DNA of 64,000 nucleotides, from contig JAHFST010000001.1 in the NCBI GenBank assembly GCA_023265625.1, forward strand, positions 97,265 to 161,264, in the 5' to 3' direction. The position numbers and the translations under genes are program-made. This document shows positions 1 to 15,189 of this stretch, piece by piece. The notes beneath the pieces were generated by a model. It was not told where the DNA came from and did not search any database. It saw only the letters and a program-made list of their open reading frames with translations. Each line of letters begins with the position of its first letter. The first letter of the stretch is position 1. This stretch comes from Deltaproteobacteria bacterium (lineage in GTDB: Bacteria > UBA10199 > JACPAL01 > JAHFST01).

Positions 1-1283
1 CCTCGGCGCAAGAGATTGAAATGATGATTGAGCGGCATTATGCCCCCCAGCGTTCGGAGGGGGAGGATATCGAGGTTAGCCAATATTTTAGCGAGCGCAG
101 CTGGAATGAGCCTCAAGAGAAATTGGAGGAGGTGGCCACGGGGCCCAAGGTCGTTCAAACCGTCAATCAAATCATCGCCAAGGCCTATCAGGAAGAGGCC
201 TCCGATATTCATATCGAACCTTCGTTTCAGGGAGTGCGCGTTCGTTATCGAATTGACGGATTGTTGGAGGAAAAACTGCAGTTGTCGCGGGAGATGCAAC
301 TCCCCATCGTTTCCCGCATCAAGATCATCGCCGGATTGGACATCGCGGAACGGCGTGTACCGCAGGATGGCCGGGTGCGTCTGCGTCTTGGGGGTAACCC
401 GCTAGACCTGCGTGTGTCAACTTTTCCGACCCTCTATGGTGAGAAGGTGGTGTTGCGGCTCCTGTCTCGCGGGGGGATTATTGGCATCGAGAAGCTGGGG
501 TTCAATTCCCGTGATCGCAAGATATTTGCGGACGTCATCGGACGGAGCTACGGGATTTTTTTGGTGACGGGACCGACCGGTTCCGGCAAGTCGACCACGC
601 TTTATGCGGCTCTCAATCGGCTCAATTCTTCCGAAAAGAATATTATCTCCGTGGAGGATCCGGTTGAGAGCGAAATCCCGGGCGTGAATCAAGCGCAAGT
701 GAATCTCAAGGCCGGGTCCACTTTTGCCAGTTCGTTGCGCGCGATCCTTCGGCAGGATCCGGATGTCATCATGATCGGTGAAATTCGCGACTCTGAAACC
801 GCGGAAATTGCCGTGCGATCCGCCATTACGGGGCATCTCGTGCTTTCCACCCTCCATACCAACAGCGCCGTCGGGGCTATTTCCCGATTGGTGGACCTCA
901 AGGTGGAGCCTTTTTTGATCGGGTCGGCCTTGATTGGCGTGTTGGCGCAGCGTCTGGTGCGGCGGATTTGTCCCCATTGCAAGGAGCAGACGGTGGCGGA
1001 TCTGGAAAAGCTGGGCCCCCTGAAGGATCAGGTTCACACGGTGTGGCGCGGCAAGGGGTGTCCGACCTGCCGCATGTCGGGTTATTTGGGACGGTTGGGG
1101 ATCTTTGAATTGGTTCCGATTAATGATGCCATCCGACGTCTCATTAACGCCCGTGCCTCCGATACCGAGATTGAGCAAGCGGTCAGAAAGATGGGGGTTG
1201 GGTCGATTACGGAAGAGGGGATTGAAAAGGTGAATGCGGGCGTGACCACCATTGAGGAAGTGCTGCGGGTGACGCAGGAATAA
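1..1283 (+). CDS. pilB: Type IV pilus / type II secretion assembly ATPase (PilB/GspE family). The window holds only the C-terminal ~420 aa. The frame is open from nt 3, so the true start lies upstream of the window.
   Basis: Walker A GPTGSGKST. GspE-type Asp/His boxes. Tetra-Cys zinc motif CPHC...CPTC. No stop between the window edge and the ATG at nt 21. Confidence 0.85.
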   Translation, partial: SAQEIEMMIERHYAPQRSEGEDIEVSQYFSERSWNEPQEKLEEVATGPKVVQTVNQIIAKAYQEEASDIHIEPSFQGVRVRYRIDGLLEEKLQLSREMQLPIVSRIKIIAGLDIAERRVPQDGRVRLRLGGNPLDLRVSTFPTLYGEKVVLRLLSRGGIIGIEKLGFNSRDRKIFADVIGRSYGIFLVTGPTGSGKSTTLYAALNRLNSSEKNIISVEDPVESEIPGVNQAQVNLKAGSTFASSLRAILRQDPDVIMIGEIRDSETAEIAVRSAITGHLVLSTLHTNSAVGAISRLVDLKVEPFLIGSALIGVLAQRLVRRICPHCKEQTVADLEKLGPLKDQVHTVWRGKGCPTCRMSGYLGRLGIFELVPINDAIRRLINARASDTEIEQAVRKMGVGSITEEGIEKVNAGVTTIEEVLRVTQE

Positions 1284-1289
1284 CATCCC

Positions 1290-2516
1290 ATGCCAACATT
1301 TTCTTATCGCGCGTGTGACCCGCAAGGGGTCGTGGTTATTGGTGAAGCGGATGCCGCGCGCGCCGATGACCTGAAGGAGTTGTTGCAGCGTCAGGGATTG
1401 ATCCCTCTCGCGGTTCAGCCATGCTCGTCTGGATTTAAATTCGCCAATATTTCATTGCGGGATATTTTTGATAGTTATGTGGACCCGCAGGATATCTTGG
1501 TGCTCACCCGGCAATTTTACACCCTGTTCAAGGCGGGGGTGGGGATGGAGATGTTGCTGGGCACCTTGTCGCGGCAGTCTAGTAATCGCAAACTACGTGA
1601 GACGCTCCTAAAGATTCGCAATGATATCCTTTCCGGCGAAAACCTGTCCAAGGCCTTTGCGAAGCATAGCGCTATCTTTGGGGATCTCTATGTCAACATG
1701 CTGGTGGCCGGTGAAGAGGCGGGTATCTTAGAGGAGGTTTTGAAAAATCTCGCCTCCCTCTACGAAAAAGAGTTAGAGACCAAGGCCTCGGTAAAGTCAG
1801 CGGTCCTTTATCCCAAAATAGTTGTCTTCGTCCTCGTGGTGGCCACGGCGGTTATTATGGTGACGGTGGTGCCCAAGTTTGCTTCTTTTTATGGGCATTA
1901 CAAGGCGGAGTTGCCGTTACCGACCAAGATGTTGATGGCGATTAGTAATTTCTTTGTGCATTTTTGGTGGATGATGGGCCTGGGCGGCATGGTCGCTTAT
2001 TATTCGTATCTCAAGTACAGCCACACCAAGCGCGGCAAGCTCAGGCTCGGGCACCTCAAATTTCAACTCCCAGTCTTTGGCCCGTTAAATCTCAGGATCG
2101 TCAACTCGAGATTTTGTCACATCCTCTCAGCGCTTTACCGGAGTGGACTTTCGATGACTCGTTGTTTGGAGATAACGAGCGGGACAATTGAAAACGGCGC
2201 TTTTTCCCGGGAGCTGGAGATTTTAAAGAACGAGATCAGCGAGGGAAAGACGCTGTCCGAGGGGATGCAGCGTTGTTCTTATTTTATGCCGATTATTGTG
2301 GAAGCCACGGCCGTGGGTGAAAAATCAGGTTCGATCGATGACATGTTGGAAAGTATGGGGGCGCATTACGACATGGAGGTGCAGCACATCGTGAAAAACC
2401 TCACGACCTTGTTGGAACCCATCTTGTTGTTCTTTATTTTTGGGATGGTCACGTTGTTTGCGTTGGCGATTTTTCTTCCGATTTGGAATTTGTCCCGGGC
2501 CGTCCAGGGGTCTTAA
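1290..2516 (+). CDS. pilC: Inner-membrane platform protein PilC/GspF
   Basis: 408 aa with two GspF-type repeats and three predicted TM segments. Lies 6 nt after pilB. Confidence 0.85.
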   Translation: MPTFSYRACDPQGVVVIGEADAARADDLKELLQRQGLIPLAVQPCSSGFKFANISLRDIFDSYVDPQDILVLTRQFYTLFKAGVGMEMLLGTLSRQSSNRKLRETLLKIRNDILSGENLSKAFAKHSAIFGDLYVNMLVAGEEAGILEEVLKNLASLYEKELETKASVKSAVLYPKIVVFVLVVATAVIMVTVVPKFASFYGHYKAELPLPTKMLMAISNFFVHFWWMMGLGGMVAYYSYLKYSHTKRGKLRLGHLKFQLPVFGPLNLRIVNSRFCHILSALYRSGLSMTRCLEITSGTIENGAFSRELEILKNEISEGKTLSEGMQRCSYFMPIIVEATAVGEKSGSIDDMLESMGAHYDMEVQHIVKNLTTLLEPILLFFIFGMVTLFALAIFLPIWNLSRAVQGS

Positions 2517-2568
2517 AGAGCGGTAAATCTCGAATATTATTCATATAATTAAACTTAACATATTATTA

Positions 2569-2597
2569 TTGCTAATGTTTTAAGTTTAATGTAAGAT
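2569..2597 (+). promoter_or_regulatory. Candidate sigma-70 promoter for the major pilin gene: TTGCTA, 17 nt spacer, TAAGAT
   Basis: Lies in the AT-rich 134-nt intergenic region. Strong RBS AAGGGGGG upstream of the ATG at 2651. Confidence 0.3.
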
Positions 2598-2650
2598 AAA
2601 TTTCTCAAAATAATAAAATTTAACAGGTAATCTTTTACCAAGGGGGGATT

Positions 2651-3121
2651 ATGATGAAAAAGAAGCATAAGAAGAAAGGGCAGAAGGGCTTCACACTCAT
2701 CGAACTCGTGTTAGTCATCACGGTGCTCGGTATCTTGGCAGTGGCAGCCCTGCCGTCCTTTATCAACGTGGCCCAACAGGCCCGGAATGCGTCTCGTGAT
2801 GGGGTGGTGGGTGCGGTCAGGTCAGGTTTGGCCATGTTCCGTGCCAACGACCTGGCGAACAATGGCCCTCCAGGGATCTATCCGGCGACTTTGGATGTGG
2901 CGGTCGCCGGGGCTGCGGCTCCGGCCAATCTGTTATTTACCGGGCCGGCGGCTTGTCCGGCCAATATAGCCGCCTGTCCACTCTTGCAGCAGGGGATCAG
3001 CGATGCCGCCTGGAGCAAGACCGATGACACTACGTACACCTTTACCTCCGCGCCTGGAGCTGTTTTCACCTACACCTACGACCCGGCAACTGGATCATTC
3101 ACGAGCCCGACGGCGCCGTAA
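2651..3121 (+). CDS. pilA: Type IV major pilin / GspG-like pseudopilin with N-terminal methylation motif
   Basis: KGQKGFTLIELVLVITVLGILA prepilin leader plus hydrophobic helix. 156 aa. Confidence 0.8.
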   Translation: MMKKKHKKKGQKGFTLIELVLVITVLGILAVAALPSFINVAQQARNASRDGVVGAVRSGLAMFRANDLANNGPPGIYPATLDVAVAGAAAPANLLFTGPAACPANIAACPLLQQGISDAAWSKTDDTTYTFTSAPGAVFTYTYDPATGSFTSPTAP

Positions 3122-3151
3122 CGGTCTCGCAAAGACCGATTTCAATCTTGC

Positions 3152-3182
3152 AAGAGGGGAACAGGTTGCCTGTTCCCCTCTT
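3152..3182 (+). terminator. Perfect 14-bp stem hairpin (AAGAGGGGAACAGG-TTG-CCTGTTCCCCTCTT) directly after pilA. A smaller hairpin sits at 3123..3137.
   Basis: Inverted repeat read directly. Followed by TTGTCATTTGT. The position is typical of a pilin-gene terminator or attenuator. Confidence 0.55.
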
Positions 3183-3200
3183 GTCATTTGTAGGGGGGCT

Positions 3201-3710
3201 ATGAACAAACATCACGGCTTTACCCTCATTGAACTTGTCCTGACCCTCTCGTTGCTCTCGATCTTGGGGGTATCGGCGATCACGGCGATGGTCAATGTGG
3301 GGACGATGAAGGCGGATGTGGCGGCGCAAAAATTAGTGGCCGATCTGAGCTATGCCCGGGAATTGGCCCGGAGCCACAATGCCATTCATGGGGTGTCTTT
3401 CAACGCGGCGGCCGACACCTATACCGTGTATCAATTTGATCCGAACACCGGACTTGAGACCGCGGTGACGAGCCCTCATACCGAAACGCCCATGCTGATT
3501 AATTTTGCGACGGCCCCCGGTTTGACGGGGGTTGATATCCAGGACCCAAACTTTGGCGGCGGGAGCAATATTCGTTTCGCCCCCATCGGCACCCCGCAGC
3601 TCCCCGGAGGCGCGGCCCTGGTGGCGGCCGGAACGGTGGTCTTGTCGCAGGGGGGGCGTGCCCGGACGGTGTCTGTGCAACCCAATACGGGTGAGGTGAA
3701 CAAACAATGA
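3201..3710 (+). CDS. Minor (pseudo)pilin, FimT/GspH-like
   Basis: MNKHHGFTLIELVLTLSLL prepilin N-terminus. Start reassigned from the 3003 ORF to the ATG at 3201. Confidence 0.7.
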   Translation: MNKHHGFTLIELVLTLSLLSILGVSAITAMVNVGTMKADVAAQKLVADLSYARELARSHNAIHGVSFNAAADTYTVYQFDPNTGLETAVTSPHTETPMLINFATAPGLTGVDIQDPNFGGGSNIRFAPIGTPQLPGGAALVAAGTVVLSQGGRARTVSVQPNTGEVNKQ

Positions 3711-4231
3711 AAGCGAACCATCAAGCGGGCTTTACCATGGTGGAGATTGTCTTGGCCATCGCCCTGATGGCGATCTTGTACCCGTTTTTGATGAGTATGT
3801 TCGCCGAGACAACCGTGAACACGGCCCGTGTCAATATCACCCCCACGGCATCGGCCCTGGCCACCGAATTGATGGAGGAAATCAAGTCGCGAAAGTTCGA
3901 CGAGTTGGCCGCCAAGAATGCCAATGGCAATTGGAGCGCTCCCTTGGGGGTCGATGCGGGAGAAACGGCCAACGACAAGAATACCTTTGATGACGTGGAT
4001 GATTTTAGCGGCTGGAACCAAAATTTTGCGCCCAATTTTACCAACTACACGGCCACTGTCTCGGTGAGTTATGTGGCCTCGAACAACCTGAATGCCCCCT
4101 TGGTGATTCCAGGTCCTGTGCCCAACAATTGGACCCCCAGCTACAAACGAATCGTGGTGACGGTCTCGAACGCCGGTCTTGCGGCCAATATGCAATTGGT
4201 AACCATTGTGACGGAGTATCAATCATTATGA
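3707..4231 (+). CDS. Minor (pseudo)pilin, PilV/GspI-like
   Basis: HQAGFTMVEIVLAIALMAIL N-terminus. ATGA overlap with the upstream gene. Confidence 0.65.
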   Translation: MKANHQAGFTMVEIVLAIALMAILYPFLMSMFAETTVNTARVNITPTASALATELMEEIKSRKFDELAAKNANGNWSAPLGVDAGETANDKNTFDDVDDFSGWNQNFAPNFTNYTATVSVSYVASNNLNAPLVIPGPVPNNWTPSYKRIVVTVSNAGLAANMQLVTIVTEYQSL

Positions 4232-4731
4232 AAAGGACTTCACACAGGGGTTTTACGATGATTGAATTAGTCCTGACCATGACCCTGCTGGGCATTATCG
4301 CGGCGGTGGGATCGGTTACGATGATGCCGGCCCTTAATTCCTGGATTCTCGGCAGTGTGCGTACCAGCACGACCAATACCGCCACCTATGCGATGGATCG
4401 CCTCTTAAGTGAGATCGGCGGTCTGAAAGATAAAAAAAGTGTGGTCGCGGCCTCGGCTACTTCCTTCCAATTTGTGGATGCAGGTAACAACAATATCACT
4501 TTTAACCTGGCCAATGGCAATTTGATGCGTAACAATAATATCTTGGCCCGCGGCGTGAGCGGTTTGACGTTTACCTATTGGGATGTGAACCAGGCGACGG
4601 TAGCAAATCCTACAGTGTCTCCCGCCGATACGAATATCTGGCGCATTGGTGTTCAGTTGACCAGCCAGGTCAGTAATCAGACCATTCGGATGGAGTCGGA
4701 AATTCATCCGAGAAACCTAGCCAGAACATGA
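4228..4731 (+). CDS. Minor (pseudo)pilin, PilW/GspJ-like
   Basis: SHRGFTMIELVLTMTLLGII N-terminus. Start at ATG 4228, ATGA-coupled to the upstream gene. Confidence 0.6.
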   Translation: MKRTSHRGFTMIELVLTMTLLGIIAAVGSVTMMPALNSWILGSVRTSTTNTATYAMDRLLSEIGGLKDKKSVVAASATSFQFVDAGNNNITFNLANGNLMRNNNILARGVSGLTFTYWDVNQATVANPTVSPADTNIWRIGVQLTSQVSNQTIRMESEIHPRNLART

Positions 4732-4739
4732 GGTGAGTT

Positions 4740-5867
4740 ATGACGATCCTCAAAAAGATTTTTACGGCATTCATGCAGGGTGAAGAAGGGATGGCCTTGG
4801 TGGCCGTCATTATGGGGATGCTGATCTTGTCGGCGATCGGCGTTACGATGACCCACTTCGTTTCGAGTAATGCTGCCAGCGCCTCCGATGATTTGCAATC
4901 TTCCCAAGCCTTTTATGTCGCCGAAGGGGGCATGCAGTACGTCCTGATGAACCAACTGAATGGGGATAGCGACTATAGTAACAATGTCTCTCCCACGGCA
5001 GCTCCCTTTGGGGCGCCTTCCATTAGTCTCAACCCTGGACAATTTTGGGTTGAATACCTCAACGAAACATCGACGAGCATGACGGCGCGTGTGACCGCTC
5101 GGGTTGGAAATGCGACTCGTGCCGTGCAGCAGGCGGTGACACTCGGGGGGAGTGGTTTTAAATATGTTACGATGGCCAAGGGGAATCTCAGTATTACCAA
5201 TACGACGGGTACGGTGTCGGGGGATGTGGTGATGTCCGGGAATTATTCGATTGCGCCTACGGTGACCATGTTGGGCAACGTCACCTCCAACCCCAACCTC
5301 ACCATTCCTCCCCTGGACATGTCGGTCTACCGGAACATGACCACATCGACCTATACCGGAACCATGACCATCAGTGGAAATTACACGGGCAACACCTACA
5401 TCACCAAAAATTTGAACATCAACGCAGGGTCGACGATCAACGGCGTACTCTATGTACACGGCAATGTGGCCTTCAATGGCAACAATATCGTGGTGAATGG
5501 GACCATTGTGACGGATGGGAATCTTAATTGCGCCAATCGGACCGGGTTGCAATTTATTTCCCAGCCCATTGACGCGAACCATCAAATGCCCGCCATTGTG
5601 GTGGACGGCAACGTCGGCGATTTCACCAATGCCGACAATATGAAGGTCCGCGGGTTGGTCTGGTCCACGGGAAATCTCAGTCTCAACAATACGGACAATC
5701 TGGATTACGTGGGGTCCTTCATGGTGGATGGCAATGCCTCATTTGATACGATGACCAATTTCAAACTGTCCTTCAATTCCACCTATGTGACCGGTGTGCC
5801 TGGCATGACCGACTTGGGTGGGAGCAATACGGCCTCGATGGTGCTATCGGGTTGGCAAAGCTACTGA
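4740..5867 (+). CDS. PilX-like pilus assembly protein (PilX_N-type N-terminus), Asn/Thr-rich beta-repeat body
   Basis: GMALVAVIMGMLILSAIGVTM...QSSQAFYVAEGG matches the PilX N-domain pattern. Good RBS GAGGTGAG. Confidence 0.6.
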   Translation: MTILKKIFTAFMQGEEGMALVAVIMGMLILSAIGVTMTHFVSSNAASASDDLQSSQAFYVAEGGMQYVLMNQLNGDSDYSNNVSPTAAPFGAPSISLNPGQFWVEYLNETSTSMTARVTARVGNATRAVQQAVTLGGSGFKYVTMAKGNLSITNTTGTVSGDVVMSGNYSIAPTVTMLGNVTSNPNLTIPPLDMSVYRNMTTSTYTGTMTISGNYTGNTYITKNLNINAGSTINGVLYVHGNVAFNGNNIVVNGTIVTDGNLNCANRTGLQFISQPIDANHQMPAIVVDGNVGDFTNADNMKVRGLVWSTGNLSLNNTDNLDYVGSFMVDGNASFDTMTNFKLSFNSTYVTGVPGMTDLGGSNTASMVLSGWQSY

Positions 5868-5884
5868 TCTTTTTTTGGTGCTTT

Positions 5885-7009
5885 ATGGTGAATCTCAAAA
5901 AGATGTATTCAACATTGGTGCAAGGTCAGGATGGAATGGCCCTAGTCGCCATTATCATGGGGATGTTGATCTTGTCGGCGATAGGGATCACTATGACCAA
6001 CTTTGTTTCGAGTAATTCCTCCATAGTCTCTGATAATTTGCAGTCCTCGCAAGCCTTTTATGTCGCTGAGGGAGGCATGCAGTATGTATTGATGAATCAA
6101 CTGAATGGGGATAATAACTATGCTGATAATGTCTCTCCCACCGCGGCCCCCTTTGGGGCGCCTTCCATTAATCTAAGTCCGGGACAGTTTTGGATTGAGT
6201 ATCTCAATCAGGCGCAGACGAGTGTGACGGTGCGTGTGACGGCTCGTGTTGGCAATGCAACTCGAGCCATTCAGCAATCGGTGGTGCAGGGAGGAAGCGG
6301 TTTTAAGGATGTGACAATGGCCAAGGGGAATTTGAGCATCAACAATTCTACGGGCATCGTATCGGGGGACGTAGTGCTGGGGGGTAATTATAGCATTGCT
6401 CCGGCGGTGCAAGTGTTGGGCAATATCACCGTGGATCATAATATTCAAATTCCAGCGATTGACTACGCCCCCTATCTGGCCATGGTGACTACGACTTTTA
6501 ATGGAAATAAGACATTTTCGTCAAACTACAGCGGCAATGCTCGTGTGACCGGAAATGCCACAATCAATGCAGGGATTACCATTACGGGGCTATTGTATGT
6601 GGATGGTAATGTGGCCTTTAACGGCAATAATATTGTGATCAATGGCAGTTTGATAACCAAGGGAAATCTTGGTTTGGATGGCCGCAGCGGGCTACAATTT
6701 ATTTCTCAAACGATCGACAGTAGTCATCATATGCCGGCCATTCTCACTAAGGGTAACATTGGGGCCACGAACGCGGATAATATGAAACTCTACGGGGTGG
6801 TCTGGACGGGTGGTAACTTGAGTTTGGCCAATGCCGATAATTTAGACTATCTTGGTTCTTTTATGACGGGTGGTAATGTGAGCTACGATAATATGAAAAA
6901 TATCAAGATGACCTTTGATCCCGTTTATGTGACCGGTGTGCCAGGTCTACCCAATTTGGGAGCGAGCCAAACCCCTTCGGTGGTGTTATCAGGTTGGCAA
7001 AGTTACTAA
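5885..7009 (+). CDS. Second PilX-like protein, tandem paralog of 4740..5867 (~75% aa identity by eye)
   Basis: Start set at ATG 5885 (MVNLKK...) by alignment with the paralog. Shares the C-terminus VTGVPG...VLSGWQSY. Confidence 0.55.
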   Translation: MVNLKKMYSTLVQGQDGMALVAIIMGMLILSAIGITMTNFVSSNSSIVSDNLQSSQAFYVAEGGMQYVLMNQLNGDNNYADNVSPTAAPFGAPSINLSPGQFWIEYLNQAQTSVTVRVTARVGNATRAIQQSVVQGGSGFKDVTMAKGNLSINNSTGIVSGDVVLGGNYSIAPAVQVLGNITVDHNIQIPAIDYAPYLAMVTTTFNGNKTFSSNYSGNARVTGNATINAGITITGLLYVDGNVAFNGNNIVINGSLITKGNLGLDGRSGLQFISQTIDSSHHMPAILTKGNIGATNADNMKLYGVVWTGGNLSLANADNLDYLGSFMTGGNVSYDNMKNIKMTFDPVYVTGVPGLPNLGASQTPSVVLSGWQSY

Positions 7010-7199
7010 TATATTCAGGGGGAAGATACCCTCTCCCCCCTGAGGACCCCCCATCTGGTCGTCACTGACTCATCATTCGCTCCGCTTAACCGGCCGGAGT
7101 AAATCCGTCCGGTTAATGCTCGTTCACTATTGGGGAAAGTGTTGAAAGTGTTTGCTGAAATGAGAATAATCGAGTAGTACAGAAGCGCGGGGGGGCTCT

Positions 7200-8081
7200 G
7201 TGTATCTTGATTTTTTTTCATTGGAAGAAAAACCGTTCAACATCACGCCCGACACGCGTTTTTGGTATCTTTCCACGCAACATGAAGAGGCCGTCGCGAC
7301 CATGCTTTATGGGGTGCAGGAGCGGCGCGGCTTTGTGCTGCTGACCGGCGAGGTTGGCACCGGCAAGACGACCTCGATTCGAGCCCTGCTCAACCGGCTG
7401 CAGCAAGAGGATCCGACCGGGCGCAAGGAGATGGTTGAAACGGCCTTGATTGTGAATCCCCTGCTTTCCGTGGTGGAGTTGATCAAGGCGATCAATAAAG
7501 ATTTTGGTTGTGACCGGCCCGAGTTGGATTCCGTGCAGGGACAATTGGAGGTCCTGAATCAGTTTTTGTTGGACAATGATCGCCGTGGCGGAAACGCGGT
7601 GGTGATCATTGATGAAGGACAGAATCTCTCCTTGGAATCGCTCGAGATGTTGCGTTTACTTTCCAATCTCGAGACCGAGAGTCACAAACTGATCCAGCTG
7701 ATATTGGTAGGGCAGCCCGAGTTGGAAAAAAAACTGGAAAAACCGGAACTGCGGCAACTCCGGCAACGGATTCAGTTGCGTTATGTGTTGCAGCCTTTTA
7801 GCGTGCAAGAGACGTCGGATTATATCACGCATCGCATTCGCCGGGTGTCTCCCAAGAGCTGCATCGCCTTTCGTCCGAGTGCGGTCAAAAAGATTTATGA
7901 ATATTGTTCCGGGGTGCCGCGGATGATCAATTCCTTGTGCGATTTTACGTTGATGGCGGCTTACACGCATGAAACCCATGTCGTGACCAAACAGATTGTG
8001 GACCTGGCTTACGAGGAGATGTCGATCGGTTCCGGGCAAGCGCCCCGTCGGTTTTGGTATTTGCGTCGGAGGAGGGGATAG
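7200..8081 (+). CDS. ExeA/GspA/MshM-family AAA ATPase
   Basis: GTG start. MYLDFFSLEEKPF...FVLLTGEVGTGKTT is diagnostic of ExeA/MshM. Confidence 0.8.
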   Translation: MYLDFFSLEEKPFNITPDTRFWYLSTQHEEAVATMLYGVQERRGFVLLTGEVGTGKTTSIRALLNRLQQEDPTGRKEMVETALIVNPLLSVVELIKAINKDFGCDRPELDSVQGQLEVLNQFLLDNDRRGGNAVVIIDEGQNLSLESLEMLRLLSNLETESHKLIQLILVGQPELEKKLEKPELRQLRQRIQLRYVLQPFSVQETSDYITHRIRRVSPKSCIAFRPSAVKKIYEYCSGVPRMINSLCDFTLMAAYTHETHVVTKQIVDLAYEEMSIGSGQAPRRFWYLRRRRG

Positions 8082-8083
8082 CC

Positions 8084-8815
8084 ATGTCGCTGCTACACAA
8101 GGCCCTGAAGAAGGCGGAGCGTGACCGGAATGTCTCACCCGAGGGAGGGGTGGTGGATAGTGCGGAGCATGACGAGCGTGGAGTCTCCCGATCTCGCGTC
8201 TATATCTTGGTGTCCCTGGTGTTCGTTAGCGCCTTAGTCTTGGCCTATGTTCGTCTCTGGAAAACACGCGGCGATTCTCCCCCAGTCGCGAGTTCCATTC
8301 CTTCTGCAGTCAATGTTGGGGATTCATCAGGGAATAAGACGCCTGCCGTGAACGCCGTTGATAGTTTGGAGGTCGATCGACTGCTGCAACAAAAGAGATG
8401 GACTGAGGCCAAGACCTTGTTGGAAAAAATGTTGTTACAGGAGCCAAGGAATCCGGAACTTTATAGCAATTTGGCAATGACGTATCGTCAAACCGGAGAT
8501 CTGGCGCAGGCGGAGCAGCAGTATCAGAAGGCCTTACTCTTACAGGCAGATTTTCCGGAGGCCTTGAACAACTTGGGGGTGGTTTATTTGGCCAAGCGGC
8601 AGTTGACTGATGCGGCGGTTAACTTTCAAAAGGCGTTGAGCCTGCGCCCCGATTATGCGGAACCGCACTTTCACTTGGCCTTATTGGCCGAGTCCGAGGG
8701 AAAGATCGATGAGGCCAAGCAGCACTATTCTCGCTATATTGAACTCGTGAAAGGGGCTGATGCGACCTTTCTGCTCAAGGTTCAGCAGAGAATGGCCAGC
8801 CTAGGGGGGCGATGA
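8084..8815 (+). CDS. TPR-repeat membrane protein (MshN/ExeB-like partner of the ExeA-type ATPase)
   Basis: Start reassigned to ATG 8084 after the GGAGGAGGGG RBS. One TM helix, then at least 4 TPR repeats. Confidence 0.6.
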   Translation: MSLLHKALKKAERDRNVSPEGGVVDSAEHDERGVSRSRVYILVSLVFVSALVLAYVRLWKTRGDSPPVASSIPSAVNVGDSSGNKTPAVNAVDSLEVDRLLQQKRWTEAKTLLEKMLLQEPRNPELYSNLAMTYRQTGDLAQAEQQYQKALLLQADFPEALNNLGVVYLAKRQLTDAAVNFQKALSLRPDYAEPHFHLALLAESEGKIDEAKQHYSRYIELVKGADATFLLKVQQRMASLGGR

Positions 8816-9783
8816 GTTTTCTTAGCCGGTTTTCCAAAAGGGAAGTGGTGGGGATGGATCTCGGCGAAGCGTCGGTAAAGTTTGTTTTTTTGCATAAAGG
8901 CGAGGATGGCAGCATTCGGCTGAAGAGAAAGTTGTGTTACCGCCATCCCATCTTGCCCGAGGCCAAAAAATGGGAGGCCTTCAAGATATTTCTGCGGCAA
9001 GAAAAGTTGGATCATATCGCGATGGCCACGAATGTGGAGCATTCGAGTTTGCGGATTCGCAAGGTTGACCTTCCCAAAATGGATGCCAAGGACTTGCGGG
9101 ATGCGTTGGCTTGGAAGATGCGGGAATTCTTGGAGGGGCCGGTGGAAGGCCATGTTATTCGTTACTCGCCATTAGAGGAGTATGCCGCCGGGGAGGCCAA
9201 GAAGGTTTCACTCATCGCCTTTGCGATTCAAAGAAAGGTCGTGGAGGATCGTGTTGATTTTTTAAAAAAACTGGGGTTGAGACCCCTGGTGGTGGAGCCG
9301 ACCGCCGTGTCGACGACCGCCGCGCTGCAATTTGTCGCGCGCCCCGAAGAGGGGAAGCTGTGCGCCCTGTTGGATCTCGGTCAGGCCAAGACGAGGCTGA
9401 TTGTGGTGAATAGGAATAAGTTGCTCTTTTCACGGCCTTTCCCCAACTTTTCCCTCTCGGATATTTTTCGACTGTGTAAAATTGAATCGCCCACCGATGC
9501 CCCGGAGCAGAATAAGATCCTGCTTTATGAGGTCTATACTCAGATCGCCGTTGAGATACAACGTTCGTTGGATAATTTTTCCCTCCTATTTGGCAACCAT
9601 CACATTAATAATCTTTATCTTTGCGGTGGCGGCGCGGAATTACCGCAATTTGCGCAACACCTGACAAACAGCCTGGGATTGAAGTCCGAAATTATTAACC
9701 CCCTGAGTCACTGGAAGTTGCCGCCGGAGCAGGGTCACCTTTACATGGCGGCGCTGGGATTGGCGCTCTACGCTTATGGTTGA
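8812..9783 (+). CDS. pilM: PilM (actin-like pilus assembly protein)
   Basis: ATGA overlap with the upstream gene. PilM-like N-terminus VVGMDLGEASVKFVFL. Sits first in a PilM-N-O-Q gene order. Confidence 0.75.
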   Translation: MSFLSRFSKREVVGMDLGEASVKFVFLHKGEDGSIRLKRKLCYRHPILPEAKKWEAFKIFLRQEKLDHIAMATNVEHSSLRIRKVDLPKMDAKDLRDALAWKMREFLEGPVEGHVIRYSPLEEYAAGEAKKVSLIAFAIQRKVVEDRVDFLKKLGLRPLVVEPTAVSTTAALQFVARPEEGKLCALLDLGQAKTRLIVVNRNKLLFSRPFPNFSLSDIFRLCKIESPTDAPEQNKILLYEVYTQIAVEIQRSLDNFSLLFGNHHINNLYLCGGGAELPQFAQHLTNSLGLKSEIINPLSHWKLPPEQGHLYMAALGLALYAYG

Positions 9784-10336
9784 AAGAATTAATTTTATCG
9801 AGAGACGGCCGTTTACGATCAATTATCGGATTGTCGGATTGCTCTTTACCGGGGTACTGGTGTTGCAGTCGGTGGTTTATGGATATCAAGCCACACGGAT
9901 CCATTGGCTTGAGGAAAAACACGCCGTTCTCACAGTTGAGTTGTCGGAGTTGAGAGAACAACAGCAAAAAATGTTGGCGGTGCAGGCCCCTCAACCAGTG
10001 AGCAATGGCTCAGAACAGGCGCAGTTGATTAAGGCCCTGGAAGCGTCTCCTGTTTGGTCAAAATTGTTGGGGCGGGTGGTTCAAGTGATGCCTGCCAACC
10101 TCTGGCTTACCAAGATAAAAACACACAATAAGGATGAAAAATCTGAGGCCAACGCCTTTCTGATTGAAGGTAAGGCTCGCGAGCCCGAGCTGGTCGCTTT
10201 TTTTGTGCAACGGTTGGTGCAGAGTGGGTTTTTTTCTCATGTCTTGCTCACCTCATCAATCTTGGATAAGCCCGGTGTGGGGGCGGTATTTAACTTTTCC
10301 ATTAATGCCGATGTGTCCCCCGGAGGTTCGTTCTAA
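9776..10336 (+). CDS. pilN: PilN
   Basis: Single TM segment plus coiled coil. 8-nt overlap with pilM. Confidence 0.65.
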   Translation: MVERINFIERRPFTINYRIVGLLFTGVLVLQSVVYGYQATRIHWLEEKHAVLTVELSELREQQQKMLAVQAPQPVSNGSEQAQLIKALEASPVWSKLLGRVVQVMPANLWLTKIKTHNKDEKSEANAFLIEGKAREPELVAFFVQRLVQSGFFSHVLLTSSILDKPGVGAVFNFSINADVSPGGSF

Positions 10337-10929
10337 TGGGATTCGATTTTCGCAAAGATGTCATCCCGCGGGAGCAAGCTTTATTTGGGCTGTTGCTCAT
10401 CGCGGTAATTGTGCTTTTTCTCCGGATGGTTTATACCCCCAATGCGGTACGGTTGATTGACCTCAAACAAAGGGTTGCCAATTTGCAAATGGAAAAAGCG
10501 GCGCTGGAAAAGTTTCAATTGTCAACGCCCAAGATTAGGCCGAGTGTCGTCCCCACCAAAAATATTCAGGCGAGGGTTTTGTCGGGGGATATTCTGTCAG
10601 AGTTTCATGATGTGAGTGCCCTGTTGTCCAAAGTGACCGAGCCGTCGTTTCGGGGTGATTTAACGGTGGGAAGTTTCAACTACCAGGCTCCTGTTGTGAC
10701 AGAATCGCCGATCCAGACGGTTGATTTTATGCTGAAGCCTCATGGAAGGTTCTCCAGTCTTTTGGAATACCTCCAAAGACTCGAGCAGTTTCCGGCGGTT
10801 TTCAAGATTAAAGATATCTCGTTAGAAATGAATCGGACCGATCACCAGATTTTGGGGGAGATAGGCGGCCGTTTTTTTGAGATACATCCAGTCGTGAAAG
10901 GGAGCGGGATTTCTCCGGCAAAGAAATGA
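10336..10929 (+). CDS. pilO: PilO
   Basis: TM segment plus coiled coil. 1-nt overlap (TAATG) with the upstream gene. Confidence 0.6.
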   Translation: MGFDFRKDVIPREQALFGLLLIAVIVLFLRMVYTPNAVRLIDLKQRVANLQMEKAALEKFQLSTPKIRPSVVPTKNIQARVLSGDILSEFHDVSALLSKVTEPSFRGDLTVGSFNYQAPVVTESPIQTVDFMLKPHGRFSSLLEYLQRLEQFPAVFKIKDISLEMNRTDHQILGEIGGRFFEIHPVVKGSGISPAKK

Positions 10930-12500
10930 CCATAAAATCTTACCGGGTTTTTTTAGGGTGTTTCTTGAGCTGTTTGCTGCCCTTGGTGGCGGCGGCGGTG
11001 CCTGTTTCGGATTTGGCGACGGAAGACTTTGACAAGGGCCCGGCGGCCTTGGCTCCCGGGACCCGCGATCCATTTGCCCAATCTCCCCTGGGGAAAGAGG
11101 TCGATATTCGTTCCTTGCATGTCCAAGGACTCATTATCGGGGGCAAGCTGAAGATGGCCCTGTTGTCCGGCCGGATTGTCCGGGAGGGGGATTCTTTAGG
11201 ATCTTATCTTGTGAAGGAGGTTAAAGAAGACCATGTGACCCTAGCTTCGGGTGACCAGCTTTATAATCTTACGGTGGATAATTATCTCCCCGCTGCGCCC
11301 AGATTGGCGGGGAACGGATATCTGGTGGAATTTAACGAGGCGGGTATCCGGGAGAGTTTGACTATGCTTGCCAAGGCTTCGGGAATTAACTTGATGCTCC
11401 CCAATGACTTGAGCGGGGCGGTGAGCGTCAGTTTTCGGAATGCCGATTTGTTGTCCACATTGCACTCAATCCTTCAGGCCAACGGATTTAGTTACAAGAA
11501 TAACAACGGGATCTATCTGATGGGCAAACCGGAGGATTTTGTCGGGGGTTCGGACCTGAAGACGCGCATTTTTAAATTGGAGTATGCCCCTGCCAGGGAT
11601 CTGGCGGATCGGGTCAAGAAGATCATGTCCGAAAAGGGCAATGCGATTGCGGATGAGCGATCCAATGTCTTGACGGTGCGCGACTATGAGCCCGTGATTG
11701 AAGACATCGAAAAATTGGTGGCGATGGTGGATAAGCGCGACCTGCAGGTTCATATTGAGGGTCGGATCATTGATGCCACCGAGACCTTTGCGCGCGCCTT
11801 GGGGGTTCAGTGGGGCATCTCGGATTCGACGGGAACCTTTCGGGCTTCCGGCACCACGGAAGTGGGGACCAACTCTAACAGCGGTAACCCATTTAACGTC
11901 AATCTGGGGGCGGCGACCCCGACGAGCGGTATTAGCATGATTTTGGGGCGATTTGCCAGCGGTCTTCAGGTGGAGAATAAACTCTCGGCGGCCGAACAAC
12001 ATGGAGATATCAAGATTATCTCCCGCCCCTCCATCACGACCGTTAACAATGTGCCCGCCAAAATACGGAGTGGGGCCAAAATTTATGTTAAATCGACTTC
12101 GAGCATTTCGGTGGGGACTTCGAGCGCCAGTTCCAGTACTTCCCAGTCGGGGCTCCAGGAGATTGACACGGGCATCGACTTGACCGTGACCCCGCAGATC
12201 TCCTCGGATGATATGATTCGGCTTAAAATTGAGGCGAAGGAGAGTGAGCCGGATTTTTCCAAGACGGTGGATGGTATCCCCTCGGTGCTGGATAACTCGG
12301 CGGACACCGTGGTGTTGTTGGTGGATGATGAGACCGTCGTGATCGGTGGACTCTACAAGGTGACCAATAACCTTTCAAAAGGCAGGGTGCCCGGTATCAG
12401 TCGTGTGCCTGTCTTAGGAAACCTGTTCAAGAACAAGAGCAAGACTAAGGAAAATCGCGAATTGTTGATTTTTATCACCCCCAAACTGATCAAGATGTGA
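10926..12500 (+). CDS. pilQ: Secretin PilQ/GspD (short form, no AMIN domains)
   Basis: Signal peptide. C-terminal secretin signature VPVLGNLFKNKSKTKENRELLIFITPKLI. ATGA-coupled to the upstream gene. Confidence 0.85.
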   Translation: MTIKSYRVFLGCFLSCLLPLVAAAVPVSDLATEDFDKGPAALAPGTRDPFAQSPLGKEVDIRSLHVQGLIIGGKLKMALLSGRIVREGDSLGSYLVKEVKEDHVTLASGDQLYNLTVDNYLPAAPRLAGNGYLVEFNEAGIRESLTMLAKASGINLMLPNDLSGAVSVSFRNADLLSTLHSILQANGFSYKNNNGIYLMGKPEDFVGGSDLKTRIFKLEYAPARDLADRVKKIMSEKGNAIADERSNVLTVRDYEPVIEDIEKLVAMVDKRDLQVHIEGRIIDATETFARALGVQWGISDSTGTFRASGTTEVGTNSNSGNPFNVNLGAATPTSGISMILGRFASGLQVENKLSAAEQHGDIKIISRPSITTVNNVPAKIRSGAKIYVKSTSSISVGTSSASSSTSQSGLQEIDTGIDLTVTPQISSDDMIRLKIEAKESEPDFSKTVDGIPSVLDNSADTVVLLVDDETVVIGGLYKVTNNLSKGRVPGISRVPVLGNLFKNKSKTKENRELLIFITPKLIKM

Positions 12501-14452
12501 CCTTCGTGATGTTATTCCGAATTTTTGCCATTCTTTTGATTCTGCTGCCAGTTGTTGGAGAAGCTAAAACCGACCCGTCGGGTTTTTCCCGCGGGTTTCG
12601 CAGTTTTCAGGTGGAGGAATATCAAAACGCGGTCGGTGAATTAAGCAAACTGCGACACGATAATTTTCTCCTGCAAGATTATACTCTTTATGCCCTTGGG
12701 GAATCGTTGTCAGAGCTGGGGCGTTGCGCTGAGGCCGTCCCGGTTTTGCAAAAGGTTGTGGATCAATATCCTGACAGTATTTGGGTGAAAAAAGCCGCCA
12801 GTGCCTTGCTTCACGCCCTGATTTGCGAAGGAGATAAGGACAAGTTGACGGGAATTGCCGAGGGGGACCGGATGCATGGGGTCTCGGATACCGATCAGGC
12901 GACCTTTTTTTTAGAACGGGCCAAGCTCCTCATCACCGATGGCAAGATGCAAGAGGCCAGCCGAGATCTCAGCAGGGTCATCGAGAATTATCCGGGCAGT
13001 CAGGCGGTTCGTGAATCCTTGGCCTTGATGAAAGCAAGGGGATTGGTTCGGGGGGGGGATGAATGGGAGAAGATAGCCGAGACGTTGTTGAAGGCGGACA
13101 ACTGTCGCATGGCCGAGCAGTCTTTGACGGAGATTGATAAGTTGTCGGCCTTGTCCTATGCGCGCAAGGAGGCTTTGGCCGATTGCTATTTTTCCAAAAG
13201 AAACTACGCGGAGGCCAAGGAGATTTATCAGAAATTGTGTCGGGGCTCCGATGCGGATGCGGCGTGTTTGGGCCGTCTTTCGCAAGCGGCGGCACGTTCC
13301 GATGATGTGGCCTTGGCGGTTCACAGTAATGAACAACTCATAAAACTCTTTCCCCGCGCCCCTCAGGCCAAGAAGGCCCTTGCAAAGATCGCTTTTCTTT
13401 ACGAGGACTCCCATCAATATGCCAAGGCCTTACCTGTCTTGAAGCAGCTTTTGCAGCGCGAAAAAGGACAACAGCAGCGAGAGAAATTGTTGGAGAGCCT
13501 GTCTTGGGTGGATTACCGCCTGGGTAAATTTCAGGAGGCCTTGCAAGTCTTGGAACAAGGCGAGGCGTCCAGCTCGGACGGATTTTTTCCCTATTGGCGC
13601 GGGCGCATTTTGGAGAAGTTAGGTCGCAAGAAACCAGCTCAAGCGGTTTATGACCAGCTCATGGAAGATCATCCCGGCACCTATTACGCGATCCGGGCCG
13701 CCGAACACAGGGCCAAGGGGGGCATGTCCGCGACCTATGCCCGTTGGTGGTCGCCTCTGGGCAAACCCCAATGGATCAAGGAGGTGCAAGATATTCCGCA
13801 TAAATCGGATGCCTTAAAAAAGGCTCAACTGTTAATGACCTTGGGGTTTGATGATAAAGCCGCTGCCGAGTTGCGGCGTTTCCGCGCGGAGTGCCGTCGA
13901 TGTGAATTGTATGATGCGACGGCGCTGCCTGATTTTACCAAGCACGGGGTTTATTATCGCCGATCCGTGGGCCGGCAGGATGCCAAATTTCCGCTCCCCT
14001 GGGCCGATGTGCTGTTGCCGGCCGCCGAGGCGTCGCATCTCGATCCCTATCTCGCCTATGCGATCATGCGTCAGGAGAGCCGCTTCAATGTGAGGGCGAA
14101 TTCCAGCGCGGGCGCCAAGGGATTGATGCAACTCATGCCTTTCACTGCCAAGCGCATTGCTGAACAGGCCGATTGGAGCGAATTTGATCCGGAGCAGGTC
14201 TTCGATCCGGAGGTCAATATCCGTCTCAGTTTGGAGTATCTCAAGGTTCTCCACGGTTATTTCACCGACCCACTGTACTCCGTGGCCTCCTACAACGCCG
14301 GCGAAGAGGCCGTCAAACGCTGGGCCAAGACCCGCGGGGAGATGCCGATCGAAGAGTTCATCGAAGAGATCCCCTACGCCGAGACGCGGGACTACGTGAA
14401 AAAAGTCTATGCCAACTGGCAGGCGTATCGGTTTATTTATTCGGGGAGGTAG
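12497..14452 (+). CDS. slt: Soluble lytic murein transglycosylase (Slt family) with a superhelical TPR-like N-domain
   Basis: SLT motifs MRQESRFN...GLMQLMP...YNAGEEAV. GTG at 12497 overlaps the pilQ stop. An alternative ATG lies at 12506. Confidence 0.8.
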   Translation: MTFVMLFRIFAILLILLPVVGEAKTDPSGFSRGFRSFQVEEYQNAVGELSKLRHDNFLLQDYTLYALGESLSELGRCAEAVPVLQKVVDQYPDSIWVKKAASALLHALICEGDKDKLTGIAEGDRMHGVSDTDQATFFLERAKLLITDGKMQEASRDLSRVIENYPGSQAVRESLALMKARGLVRGGDEWEKIAETLLKADNCRMAEQSLTEIDKLSALSYARKEALADCYFSKRNYAEAKEIYQKLCRGSDADAACLGRLSQAAARSDDVALAVHSNEQLIKLFPRAPQAKKALAKIAFLYEDSHQYAKALPVLKQLLQREKGQQQREKLLESLSWVDYRLGKFQEALQVLEQGEASSSDGFFPYWRGRILEKLGRKKPAQAVYDQLMEDHPGTYYAIRAAEHRAKGGMSATYARWWSPLGKPQWIKEVQDIPHKSDALKKAQLLMTLGFDDKAAAELRRFRAECRRCELYDATALPDFTKHGVYYRRSVGRQDAKFPLPWADVLLPAAEASHLDPYLAYAIMRQESRFNVRANSSAGAKGLMQLMPFTAKRIAEQADWSEFDPEQVFDPEVNIRLSLEYLKVLHGYFTDPLYSVASYNAGEEAVKRWAKTRGEMPIEEFIEEIPYAETRDYVKKVYANWQAYRFIYSGR

Positions 14453-14472: not shown

Positions 14473-14913
14473 TTAATCCTCAGGATGGATGATTTTAATC
14501 TCTGCGGCGCCGCTCAGTCGCAAAAAATCCCGTTCGTTCCAGGTCAATAGGGTAGAAATTTTTTCCCTGAGGCAGGCCTGTAAGATGAGGGAGTCGAAGA
14601 TTAAATTTCCCCGGAGGTTGCGATCGATGGTTCGTTGCAGCGCCTGATCGTAGTCGTGCGAGGAGATGTGGATGCGGCGGAATTCCCGCAAGTTTTCATC
14701 GATTAACTGGCCGGCGGTCGCGGGGAGGATGGCGGGGGTGAGGGGGAGGGTGGTCAGGACGGCGTAGGTCTCGGCGATGATTTGCGAGGAGATGACCCCC
14801 TGGATTTTTCCCTGCTGGGCTTCGGCCAGTTTTGTGCGTGAGGGCTGATGGTGCGGATGGGTTGCCACGCAGGCGGCGACCAGGACATTGGTATCGAAAA
14901 AGACCGGTTTCAT
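14473..14913 (-). CDS. vapC: PIN-domain toxin VapC
   Basis: MKPVFFDTNVLVAA PIN signature. Confidence 0.8.
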   Translation of the reverse strand: MKPVFFDTNVLVAACVATHPHHQPSRTKLAEAQQGKIQGVISSQIIAETYAVLTTLPLTPAILPATAGQLIDENLREFRRIHISSHDYDQALQRTIDRNLRGNLIFDSLILQACLREKISTLLTWNERDFLRLSGAAEIKIIHPED

Positions 14914-15189
14914 TTAGCGGCCCGTTTGAGATTGGGTGCGTGCGGCCCTGATCCGGCTAGTCCAGTCCTCTTCCGGCAAAGGATCGCCGCTAGTGACCAC
15001 CAGGACCCCGTCGCGTTTTTCCAAGGTCGGTGCCTCGGGGAGGGGGACGAGACGGATCTCCCCGTCCCGTTCATAGATCTCAAAACGGGTCCCAGGACTA
15101 AGCCCCATCAGGTCGCGGATCGGTTTTGGCAGGACCAGTCGTCCCGCCCGGTCGATCATGGTCTCGAGTTCAATCGCTTCTTTGGCCAT
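14914..15189 (-). CDS. vapB: AbrB/SpoVT-type antitoxin VapB
   Basis: GRLVLPKPIRDLMGL swapped-hairpin motif. Its stop directly abuts the vapC ATG. Confidence 0.7.
   Translation of the reverse strand: MAKEAIELETMIDRAGRLVLPKPIRDLMGLSPGTRFEIYERDGEIRLVPLPEAPTLEKRDGVLVVTSGDPLPEEDWTSRIRAARTQSQTGR

Follow-up and report, generated by a model that had tools for sequence, protein, structure and literature searches.

Tandem paralogs combining a pilin fold with a beta-solenoid as probable alternative tip subunits of a type IV pilus in a deltaproteobacterium

Minor pilins in which a pilin fold carries a beta-solenoid have been described in Thermus and in cyanobacteria. ComZ of Thermus thermophilus (PDB 6qvi) has GspK as a relative of its pilin domain and an ice-binding protein as a relative of its solenoid (PMC6561018). 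The cyanobacterial PilX proteins all consist of a pilin fold that is interrupted, before its last strand, by a triangular ice-binding-like solenoid, which has been proposed to replace the PilY1 plug; they are cap minor pilins without the glutamate at position +5 of the mature protein (Glu5), and several paralogs per genome, such as PilX1-3 of Synechocystis, are tied to functionally distinct filaments (preprint 10.64898/2026.02.12.705559). In the same preprint, proteobacterial PilX is described as smaller and without the bulky solenoid. Here we describe two adjacent genes, A and B, from a 64,000-nucleotide (nt) stretch of deltaproteobacterial DNA (contig JAHFST010000001.1 of assembly GCA_023265625.1, positions 97,265 to 161,264), hereafter the window, to which all coordinates refer unless another contig is named. 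Each of A and B is probably a version of the K subunit in the minor-pilin priming complex of a type IV pilus with accessory genes like those of the mannose-sensitive hemagglutinin (MSHA) pilus. Because the pilin-plus-solenoid architecture is known from ComZ and cyanobacterial PilX, we regard A and B as new members of that class; the novelty lies in the lineage and the tandem pair, and none of it is categorical.

Copy A occupies positions 4740-5867 of the plus strand and encodes 375 amino acids (aa). Copy B, on the same strand, extends to 7009; the ATG at 5885 is the best of its possible starts, yielding a protein of 374 aa and leaving a gap of 17 nt between the genes. Both lengths agree with those called by a gene caller on identical genes of another contig. 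An earlier examination of the letters and open reading frames (here, the sequence-only reading) had recognized two adjacent paralogs of 375 and about 374 aa that also resemble each other at the DNA level, and this was borne out, although the identity of about 75% estimated by eye was too high: BLASTP gave 68% protein identity over 372 aa with one gap, and codon-aligned DNA identity was 69% overall. Asn, Thr, Ser, and Gly are abundant in both proteins, and Asn alone makes up 10.7-10.9% of the residues.

Residues 17-65 of A matched the PilX_N profile (PF14341) over positions 2-50 of its 51 with a score of 26.8 bits versus a cutoff of 25.5, while B reached 15.1 bits and fell below the cutoff. Thirteen of 57 relatives matched PilX_N at E <= 0.01, and two relatives had been named 'Tfp pilus assembly protein PilX' by JGI. 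The leader of both copies reads G17|M18: the prepilin-peptidase Gly at position -1 is kept, and the Phe at +1 and the Glu at +5 are lacking. The site is not the classical G|FTLIE, as the sequence-only reading had stated, but the peptidase Gly is retained. Gly was found at -1 in all 14 close relatives with complete N-termini and in 49 of 55 wider relatives; position +5 was occupied by A, S, T, I, or V in relatives, and never by Glu. Cap subunits of the GspK and PilX type share this signal. The conservation of the Gly points to a class III (prepilin-type) leader in A, encoded by 4740-4790 and ending at Gly17, with predicted cleavage at G17|M18.

To this N-terminus the predicted structure adds a complete pilin fold and a solenoid. 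The AlphaFold2 model of A, built on a 21-sequence alignment, had a predicted local distance difference test score of 82.9, and secondary structure was assigned by DSSP. It opens with a long helix (residues 3-73), continues through a sheet of four strands (95-135) into a beta-solenoid (142-344), and closes with one more strand (367-374). The part of the helix that follows the leader, alpha-1 (residues 18-73, encoded by 4791-4958), would form the filament core; the pilin-fold sheet is encoded by 5022-5144, the solenoid by 5163-5771, and the conserved C-terminal strand, which presumably returns to the pilin sheet, by 5838-5861. This strand contains Trp372, the sole invariant column across the 57 relatives. 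The pilin N-domain of the model (alpha-1 plus antiparallel sheet) matches the GspK pilin fold, and the solenoid fused to it is triangular and ice-binding-protein-like. In a Foldseek search, the top match of the model was ComZ (E 9e-5, probability 1.0); ice-binding proteins came next. The order sheet-solenoid-strand is consistent with a solenoid inserted between the pilin sheet and its last strand. The Asn/Thr/Gly-rich body with beta-solenoid-like repeats seen in the sequence-only reading was confirmed by the modeled solenoid. Weak Bactofilin matches were also obtained for A and B, and FapA solenoid matches for relatives; we rejected a Bactofilin (PF04519) identity, since the score was below the cutoff and the cellular compartment would be wrong.

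The position of the genes agrees with the fold. A and B lie within a complete type IV filament cluster (3-14452) in which the pilin genes follow the order G-H-I-J-K-K', all on the plus strand. The G position is held by a major pilin or pseudopilin with a GFTLIE leader (2651-3121; N_methyl, 35.1 bits, and a match to the GspG N-terminus) and the H position by a GspH/FimU-like minor pilin (3201-3710; Pfam GspH, 25.4 bits versus a cutoff of 21; TIGR01708, 36.8 bits, below cutoff). A PilV/GspI-like minor pilin follows at the I position (3707-4231; N_methyl, 24.2 bits; PilV TIGR02523, 28.6 bits, and GspI, 14.1 bits, both below their cutoffs). At the J position there is a GspJ/PilW-like minor pilin with the leader MKRTSHRG|FTMIE (4228-4731), for which the homolog search yielded three sequences and the structure model was nonetheless confident. 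The PilX_N match, the K position after the GspH-, PilV/GspI-, and GspJ-like genes, the GspK-like pilin domain, and the ComZ-like fold together sustain the view of A and B as PilX-like minor pilins, with A as a K-position (PilX/GspK/ComZ-like) cap minor pilin bearing a beta-solenoid domain. The same synteny, with one or two K genes, was present in relatives from other metagenomes and metagenome-assembled genomes (MAGs), in which the assembly ATPase bears an MshEN domain and a PilT-like ATPase is encoded upstream. A PilY1-like gene was found neither in the window's cluster, where all genes could be assigned, nor in the clusters of two relatives (loci L002 and L003).

We compared the copies domain by domain. 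Identity between A and B was 86% in alpha-1, where the ratio of nonsynonymous to synonymous divergence (dN/dS) was 0.05, 76% in the pilin sheet, and 62% in the solenoid, within which residues 161-225 were the most diverged stretch (51% identical). For the pair as a whole, the Nei-Gojobori method gave a dS of approximately 1.5, which is near saturation, a dN of 0.24, and a dN/dS of 0.16, indicating purifying selection; the ratio was about 0.35 or less in the most diverged window (residues 161-220) and did not exceed 0.35 in any computable window. A second, independent tandem pair in L002 (GCA_040960315.1) showed nearly the same profile, with identities of 82%, 75%, and 62% in the corresponding domains. 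When the sister relation was evaluated by a reciprocal-nearest-neighbor bootstrap, A and B were mutual nearest relatives in both the pilin domain and the solenoid (support 1.0 and 0.95), which argues that the duplication in the window is lineage-specific, while the L002 pair was clearly sister in the pilin domain only (1.0, versus 0.36 for the solenoid). At least five other close relatives had a single copy on the examined stretch, as did most relatives. We conclude that the duplication is old, that it is specific to the lineage of the window, and that it has been under purifying selection.

The contrast between a pilin domain that is 76-86% identical and a solenoid that is 62% identical fits two alternative heads on one socket, and the best reading of this conserved docking domain and diverged solenoid, as the sequence-only reading had supposed, is that A and B are candidate tip or receptor-binding subunits. 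The prepilin-type leader would be cut after Gly17, and the long hydrophobic helix would then dock on the I-like and J-like minor pilins, each encoded by a single gene a short way upstream, following the GspI-J-K paradigm. Without Glu5, nothing would be added above A or B, which would place them at the very tip of the filament. The triangular solenoid, lying between the pilin sheet and the last strand, would jut along the filament axis as a rigid Asn/Thr/Ser-rich head and may serve as an adhesin or 'plug' in this cluster without PilY1. Duplication of the gene within the lineage, with the docking domain kept and the solenoid diverging, would have enabled one machine to build pili with either of two heads, so that a given pilus would be topped by A or by B and two tip specificities would result. 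The mature proteins are acidic and contain few Lys residues (pI 5.2 for B and approximately 4.6 for A, the value for A having been calculated with the start set a few residues inside the proper one). We therefore consider a ComZ-like DNA-receptor function unlikely, a polysaccharide or a surface being the more likely ligand of the solenoid.

Several observations weigh against this assignment and should be set beside it. Copy B, as noted, does not reach the PilX_N cutoff, and the assignment of the gene upstream of the J-like pilin to the I position is weak because its PilV and GspI scores lie below the cutoffs. The GspK equivalog model (NCBIfam NF037980) gave A and B scores of 16.5 and 13.1 bits versus a cutoff of 130 and aligned with the N-terminal 55 residues only; A and B are not GspK orthologs. 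A profile search of all PDB sequences (E <= 1) returned only LpxD and an Rhs peptide, with no pilin, GspK, or ComZ among the matches, and since no solved pilin is detectable by sequence, the kinship with GspK and ComZ rests on the predicted structure. The inserted topology of the solenoid is likewise only consistent with the order of the secondary-structure elements, and the tip location, the cleavage, and the binding to the I- and J-like pilins are throughout what we infer. Finally, a 1.5- to 2-fold excess of N-x-S/T motifs persists after shuffling that keeps the polar/hydrophobic pattern (see below).

The comparison with described systems shows where A and B depart from them. ComZ has an overall fold like that of the model of A, with no detectable sequence similarity, but it is larger, its solenoid comprising about 380 residues plus long loops versus about 200 residues in A and B. 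In addition, ComZ binds DNA through lysines and is encoded by a single-copy gene in a competence locus, whereas the genes of the acidic, Lys-poor A and B stand in tandem in a cluster whose accessory genes are MSHA-like. The cyanobacterial PilX proteins resemble A and B in being cap minor pilins without Glu5, in the solenoid, and in the presence of paralogs, a likeness of architecture. Their subfamilies pair with separate PilV subfamilies, whereas A and B share one I/J set and one operon, and the phylum differs, the relatives of A and B belonging to MAGs of uncultured Deltaproteobacteria, Myxococcota, and 'Pseudomonadota'. Unlike the solenoid of A and B, the insert of GspK, a type II secretion system protein, is alpha-helical and enters the sheet at a different point (PMC6561018); GspK is grouped in the PilX_N class together with PilX of the Pseudomonas type IVa pilus. 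Identity to DUF3494/IBP-1 ice-binding proteins is just 9-17%, and the Pfam Ice_binding model did not match A or B and matched 3 of 57 relatives weakly. The modeled solenoid of A lacks the long flanking alpha-helix of IBP-1 and, in contrast to those secreted stand-alone proteins, forms part of a pilin. We rejected a role in ice binding, since it has the fold match alone in its favor, the Ice_binding hidden Markov model (HMM) is silent on A and B, and there is no sign of a cold habitat.

Three minor observations concern the history of the pair. The first 300 nt of the copies (4732-5031 and 5877-6176) are 79% identical, above the overall value, and the proportion of synonymous sites that differ is lower in the 5' third of the genes (0.5-0.6 versus 0.7-0.87); the effect is weaker in the L002 pair, where it is confined to the alpha-1 region. 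The raised 5' similarity could be due to old partial gene conversion or to codon-level constraint on the helix region. B is nearer than A to other family members in both the pilin domain (distances 0.44-0.51 versus 0.58-0.59) and the solenoid (0.67 versus 0.76), and A accordingly looks like the faster-evolving copy. A Candidatus Omnitrophota MAG (L012) carries two more divergent family members at 1298-2578 and 3333-4727 of its contig, about 750 nt apart, and so may offer another independent instance, the third, of a locus with paired K-type genes.

We next turn to the N-x-S/T motifs (x not P), of which the sequence-only reading had reported more than 20 per protein. We counted 16 for A and 15 for B, 10 being common to both, 6 specific to A, and 5 specific to B. 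Composition-preserving shuffles led us to expect 8.2 in A and 6.4 in B (p approximately 0.002 and <0.001), and shuffles that also kept the polar/hydrophobic pattern gave 10.0 and 7.6 (p 0.014 and 0.003). Across the family, 261 motifs were observed versus 170 expected, with little or no excess in 4 of 22 close relatives (shuffle p >0.3). At 4.0-4.3 per 100 aa, the density in A and B was 4-8 times that of neighboring genes, the other 28 genes of the window having 1.2 or less apart from the PilV-like pilin (2.9). By the shuffles and by the comparison with the other window genes, the enrichment exceeds chance. The motifs have a structural setting: 7 of the 16 in A are G-N-x-S/T placed directly before a solenoid strand. 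Hydrophobic residues at +2 after Asn are depleted (ratios 0.46-0.61), the spacings N-[ST] and N-x-x-[ST] occur less often than expected (0.16-0.83), and a charged residue at +2 is overrepresented in B (2.0, p 0.016), with a nonsignificant rise in A (1.5, p 0.19). Of the Asn residues that are retained, 49-58% still have S/T at +2 in close relatives; among wider relatives the share is about 40%. The best-conserved Asn residues are those of G-N corners, where S/T at +2 is kept in 7/18, 3/14, and 5/19 cases (21-39%); at N82 (17/20), N214 (12/12), N253 (12/14), and N207 of B (14/16), the motif is kept together with the Asn in nearly all, and in total four or five sites hold it at a rate above 85%. 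We conclude that the richness in N-x-S/T is largely a structural signature of solenoid corners (G-N-hydrophobic-S/T-hydrophobic), which would account for the excess in part.

These data bear on a different explanation, implied by the sequence-only reading, namely that the motif-rich solenoids are true N-glycoproteins, modified by a relaxed periplasmic PglB or by a cytoplasmic HMW1C-like N-glycosyltransferase, with glycans that shape adhesion or protect the tip. N-x-S/T sites of the beta-helical adhesin HMW1 are glycosylated by HMW1C, PglB enzymes of some Deltaproteobacteria accept a less strict motif, and the type IV pilins of archaea carry abundant N-glycans. A motif density about twice the composition expectation, the 1.5- to 2-fold excess left by the stricter shuffle, its presence across the family, and the four positions that hold their motif would fit, but the variable +2 residue at the best-conserved corners, the loss of the motif at many retained Asn residues (only 40-58% keep it overall), and the relatives with little or no excess would not. 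Campylobacter-type PglB requires the extended motif D/E-x-N-x-S/T, which occurs once in A, not at all in B, and zero to four times in relatives. Moreover, genes for STT3/PglB, GT41, or PglL-type O-oligosaccharyltransferases were absent from the 64-kb window and, in two relatives, from as much as 10 kb of Pfam-annotated sequence on either side. Since the extended motif is all but missing and the window encodes no oligosaccharyltransferase, we take glycosylation to be unproven and unlikely; its more specific form, in which the solenoid heads are N-glycosylated by a relaxed PglB or HMW1C-like enzyme encoded elsewhere in the genome, is slightly less likely still. If it were true, A and B would provide the first case of N-glycosylation on the tip subunits of type IV pili in bacteria, and the paralogs would bear different glycan patterns. 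More generally, N-x-S/T density in Asn-rich beta-solenoids owes much to corner motifs and calls for enzyme or mass-spectrometry data before it is read as glycosylation.

Two further alternatives concern the place of the proteins and the purpose of the pair. A and B might not be filament subunits at all but bitopic inner-membrane or periplasmic accessory proteins, in which an uncleaved PilX_N anchor holds a bactofilin-like solenoid that aids assembly or plugs the secretin from below. The non-canonical leader, with neither Phe at +1 nor Glu at +5, and weak Bactofilin, FapA, and MinC-like solenoid matches would accord with this, and the fact that ComZ itself was missed by PilFind (PMC6561018) also counts in its favor. 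However, the Gly at -1 is conserved as in a prepilin-peptidase substrate, the N-domain matches the GspK pilin fold, the genes occupy precisely the place of K, behind H, I, and J, and the missing Glu5 is the very hallmark by which a distal cap pilin tops the filament (preprint 10.64898/2026.02.12.705559), which together make an accessory role improbable. The pair could also be an antigenic or phase-variation system in which an expressed copy and a donor copy swap segments by recombination, and the sequence-only reading had mentioned antigenic variability. The tandem, same-orientation arrangement and the closer 5' ends, with past gene conversion as a possible cause, are compatible with such a system, but both copies are full-length with intact leaders, most relatives have only one copy, and we found no third copy in the 64 kb, no extra cassettes, and no invertible repeats, only short repeats at chance level. 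Two independent assemblies of the locus, from two samples, differed at 2 of 5378 nt. Given this near-identity, the old divergence, the purifying selection (with no window of elevated dN/dS), and the lack of a third copy or switch, we regard antigenic or phase variation as very improbable, and the claim of variability was not sustained. The two differences, relative to the assembly ERZ27280021 (L001), lie at window positions 6785 and 6787, in one codon region of the solenoid of B.

We return to A and B as probable alternative tip subunits, and to how widely such proteins occur. A word-indexed search returned 23 proteins, of which 21 were clear full-length relatives. In an exhaustive profile search, 105 sequence clusters passed E <= 1e-30, a number that rose to 491 at E <= 1e-10. 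The genomes matched were uncultured Deltaproteobacteria, Myxococcota, 'Pseudomonadota', Planctomycetia, and Omnitrophota MAGs; matches in Nitrospirota were N-terminal only, and some Verrucomicrobiota and Kiritimatiellia aligned weakly over the whole length (24-25% identity). The design of a pilin with an ice-binding-like solenoid tip would now extend beyond Thermus and the cyanobacteria to uncultured Deltaproteobacteria, Myxococcota-like bacteria, Planctomycetia, and Omnitrophota. The findings also support the idea that a K subunit with a solenoid may take the place of PilY1 as adhesin or plug of the tip. The recurrence of a conserved docking domain and a diverged head in two separate paralog pairs would provide a compact natural example of a pilus machine gaining a second tip specificity.

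The remainder of the cluster, also on the plus strand, supplies the machinery for such a filament. Upstream of the pilins are an assembly ATPase (T2SSE; 3-1283; PF00437, 445 bits), whose N-terminus lies beyond the window edge with no in-frame stop upstream, and a platform protein, PilC/GspF (1290-2516; T2SSF domains on the identical gene of another contig). Downstream of B, an ExeA/MshM-like AAA_22 ATPase (7200-8081; AAA_22, 94.8 bits; TIGR03015, 272.7 bits, below cutoff) is followed by a TPR protein, PilW/MshN-like (8084-8815; TPR families, with coordinates from the identical locus on another contig), by PilM-, PilN-, and PilO-like alignment proteins (8812-10929; PilM_2 on the window's gene on another contig, and PilM_2, PilN, and PilO on the syntenic genes of relatives), by a PilQ-like secretin (10926-12500; TIGR02515, 261 bits; GspD, 210 bits), and by a TPR-SLT lytic transglycosylase (12497-14452; SLT, 97.6 bits). 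The secretin scored 261 bits for PilQ versus 134 for MshL, both below cutoff. The MSHA-like features are the AAA_22 and TPR genes in the window and the MshEN domain in the ATPase orthologs of relatives, the corresponding N-terminus of the window's ATPase being cut off. MshEN is a known receptor domain for cyclic di-GMP, and its presence on the relatives' pilus ATPase, along with a diguanylate cyclase gene near the cluster (see below), makes cyclic di-GMP control of the window's pilus plausible. A scan of 2400-7400 for promoters and terminators gave results near shuffle expectation, with promoter-like sites only before the major pilin and the AAA gene.

Other features of the cluster and its surroundings were noted in passing. 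In two assemblies of the same relative, the major pilin region differs: one (L004, 7496-8379) has two tandem 138-aa major pilins and the other (L003, 7963-8379) has one, suggesting that tandem duplication also affects the major subunit in such clusters. Directly after the window's pilus cluster, on the minus strand at 14473-15189, are genes for a PIN-domain toxin (PF01850/PF13470) and a MazE/AbrB-type antitoxin (PF04014). A HAMP-GAF-GGDEF diguanylate cyclase is encoded on the plus strand at 20093-21601, about 6 kb downstream of the cluster. About 10 kb from the cluster, a single open reading frame of 12,088 aa extends over 24600-60866 on the minus strand. Its start resembles a signal peptide and its tail is rich in Pro and Thr. 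Thrombospondin type 3 repeats, Cys-rich motifs, and one cohesin domain were recognized in it, along with weak Big_1 and weak beta-helix matches; most of its length has no Pfam match, and residue autocorrelation revealed no strong internal periodicity. Its product may be a giant surface protein.

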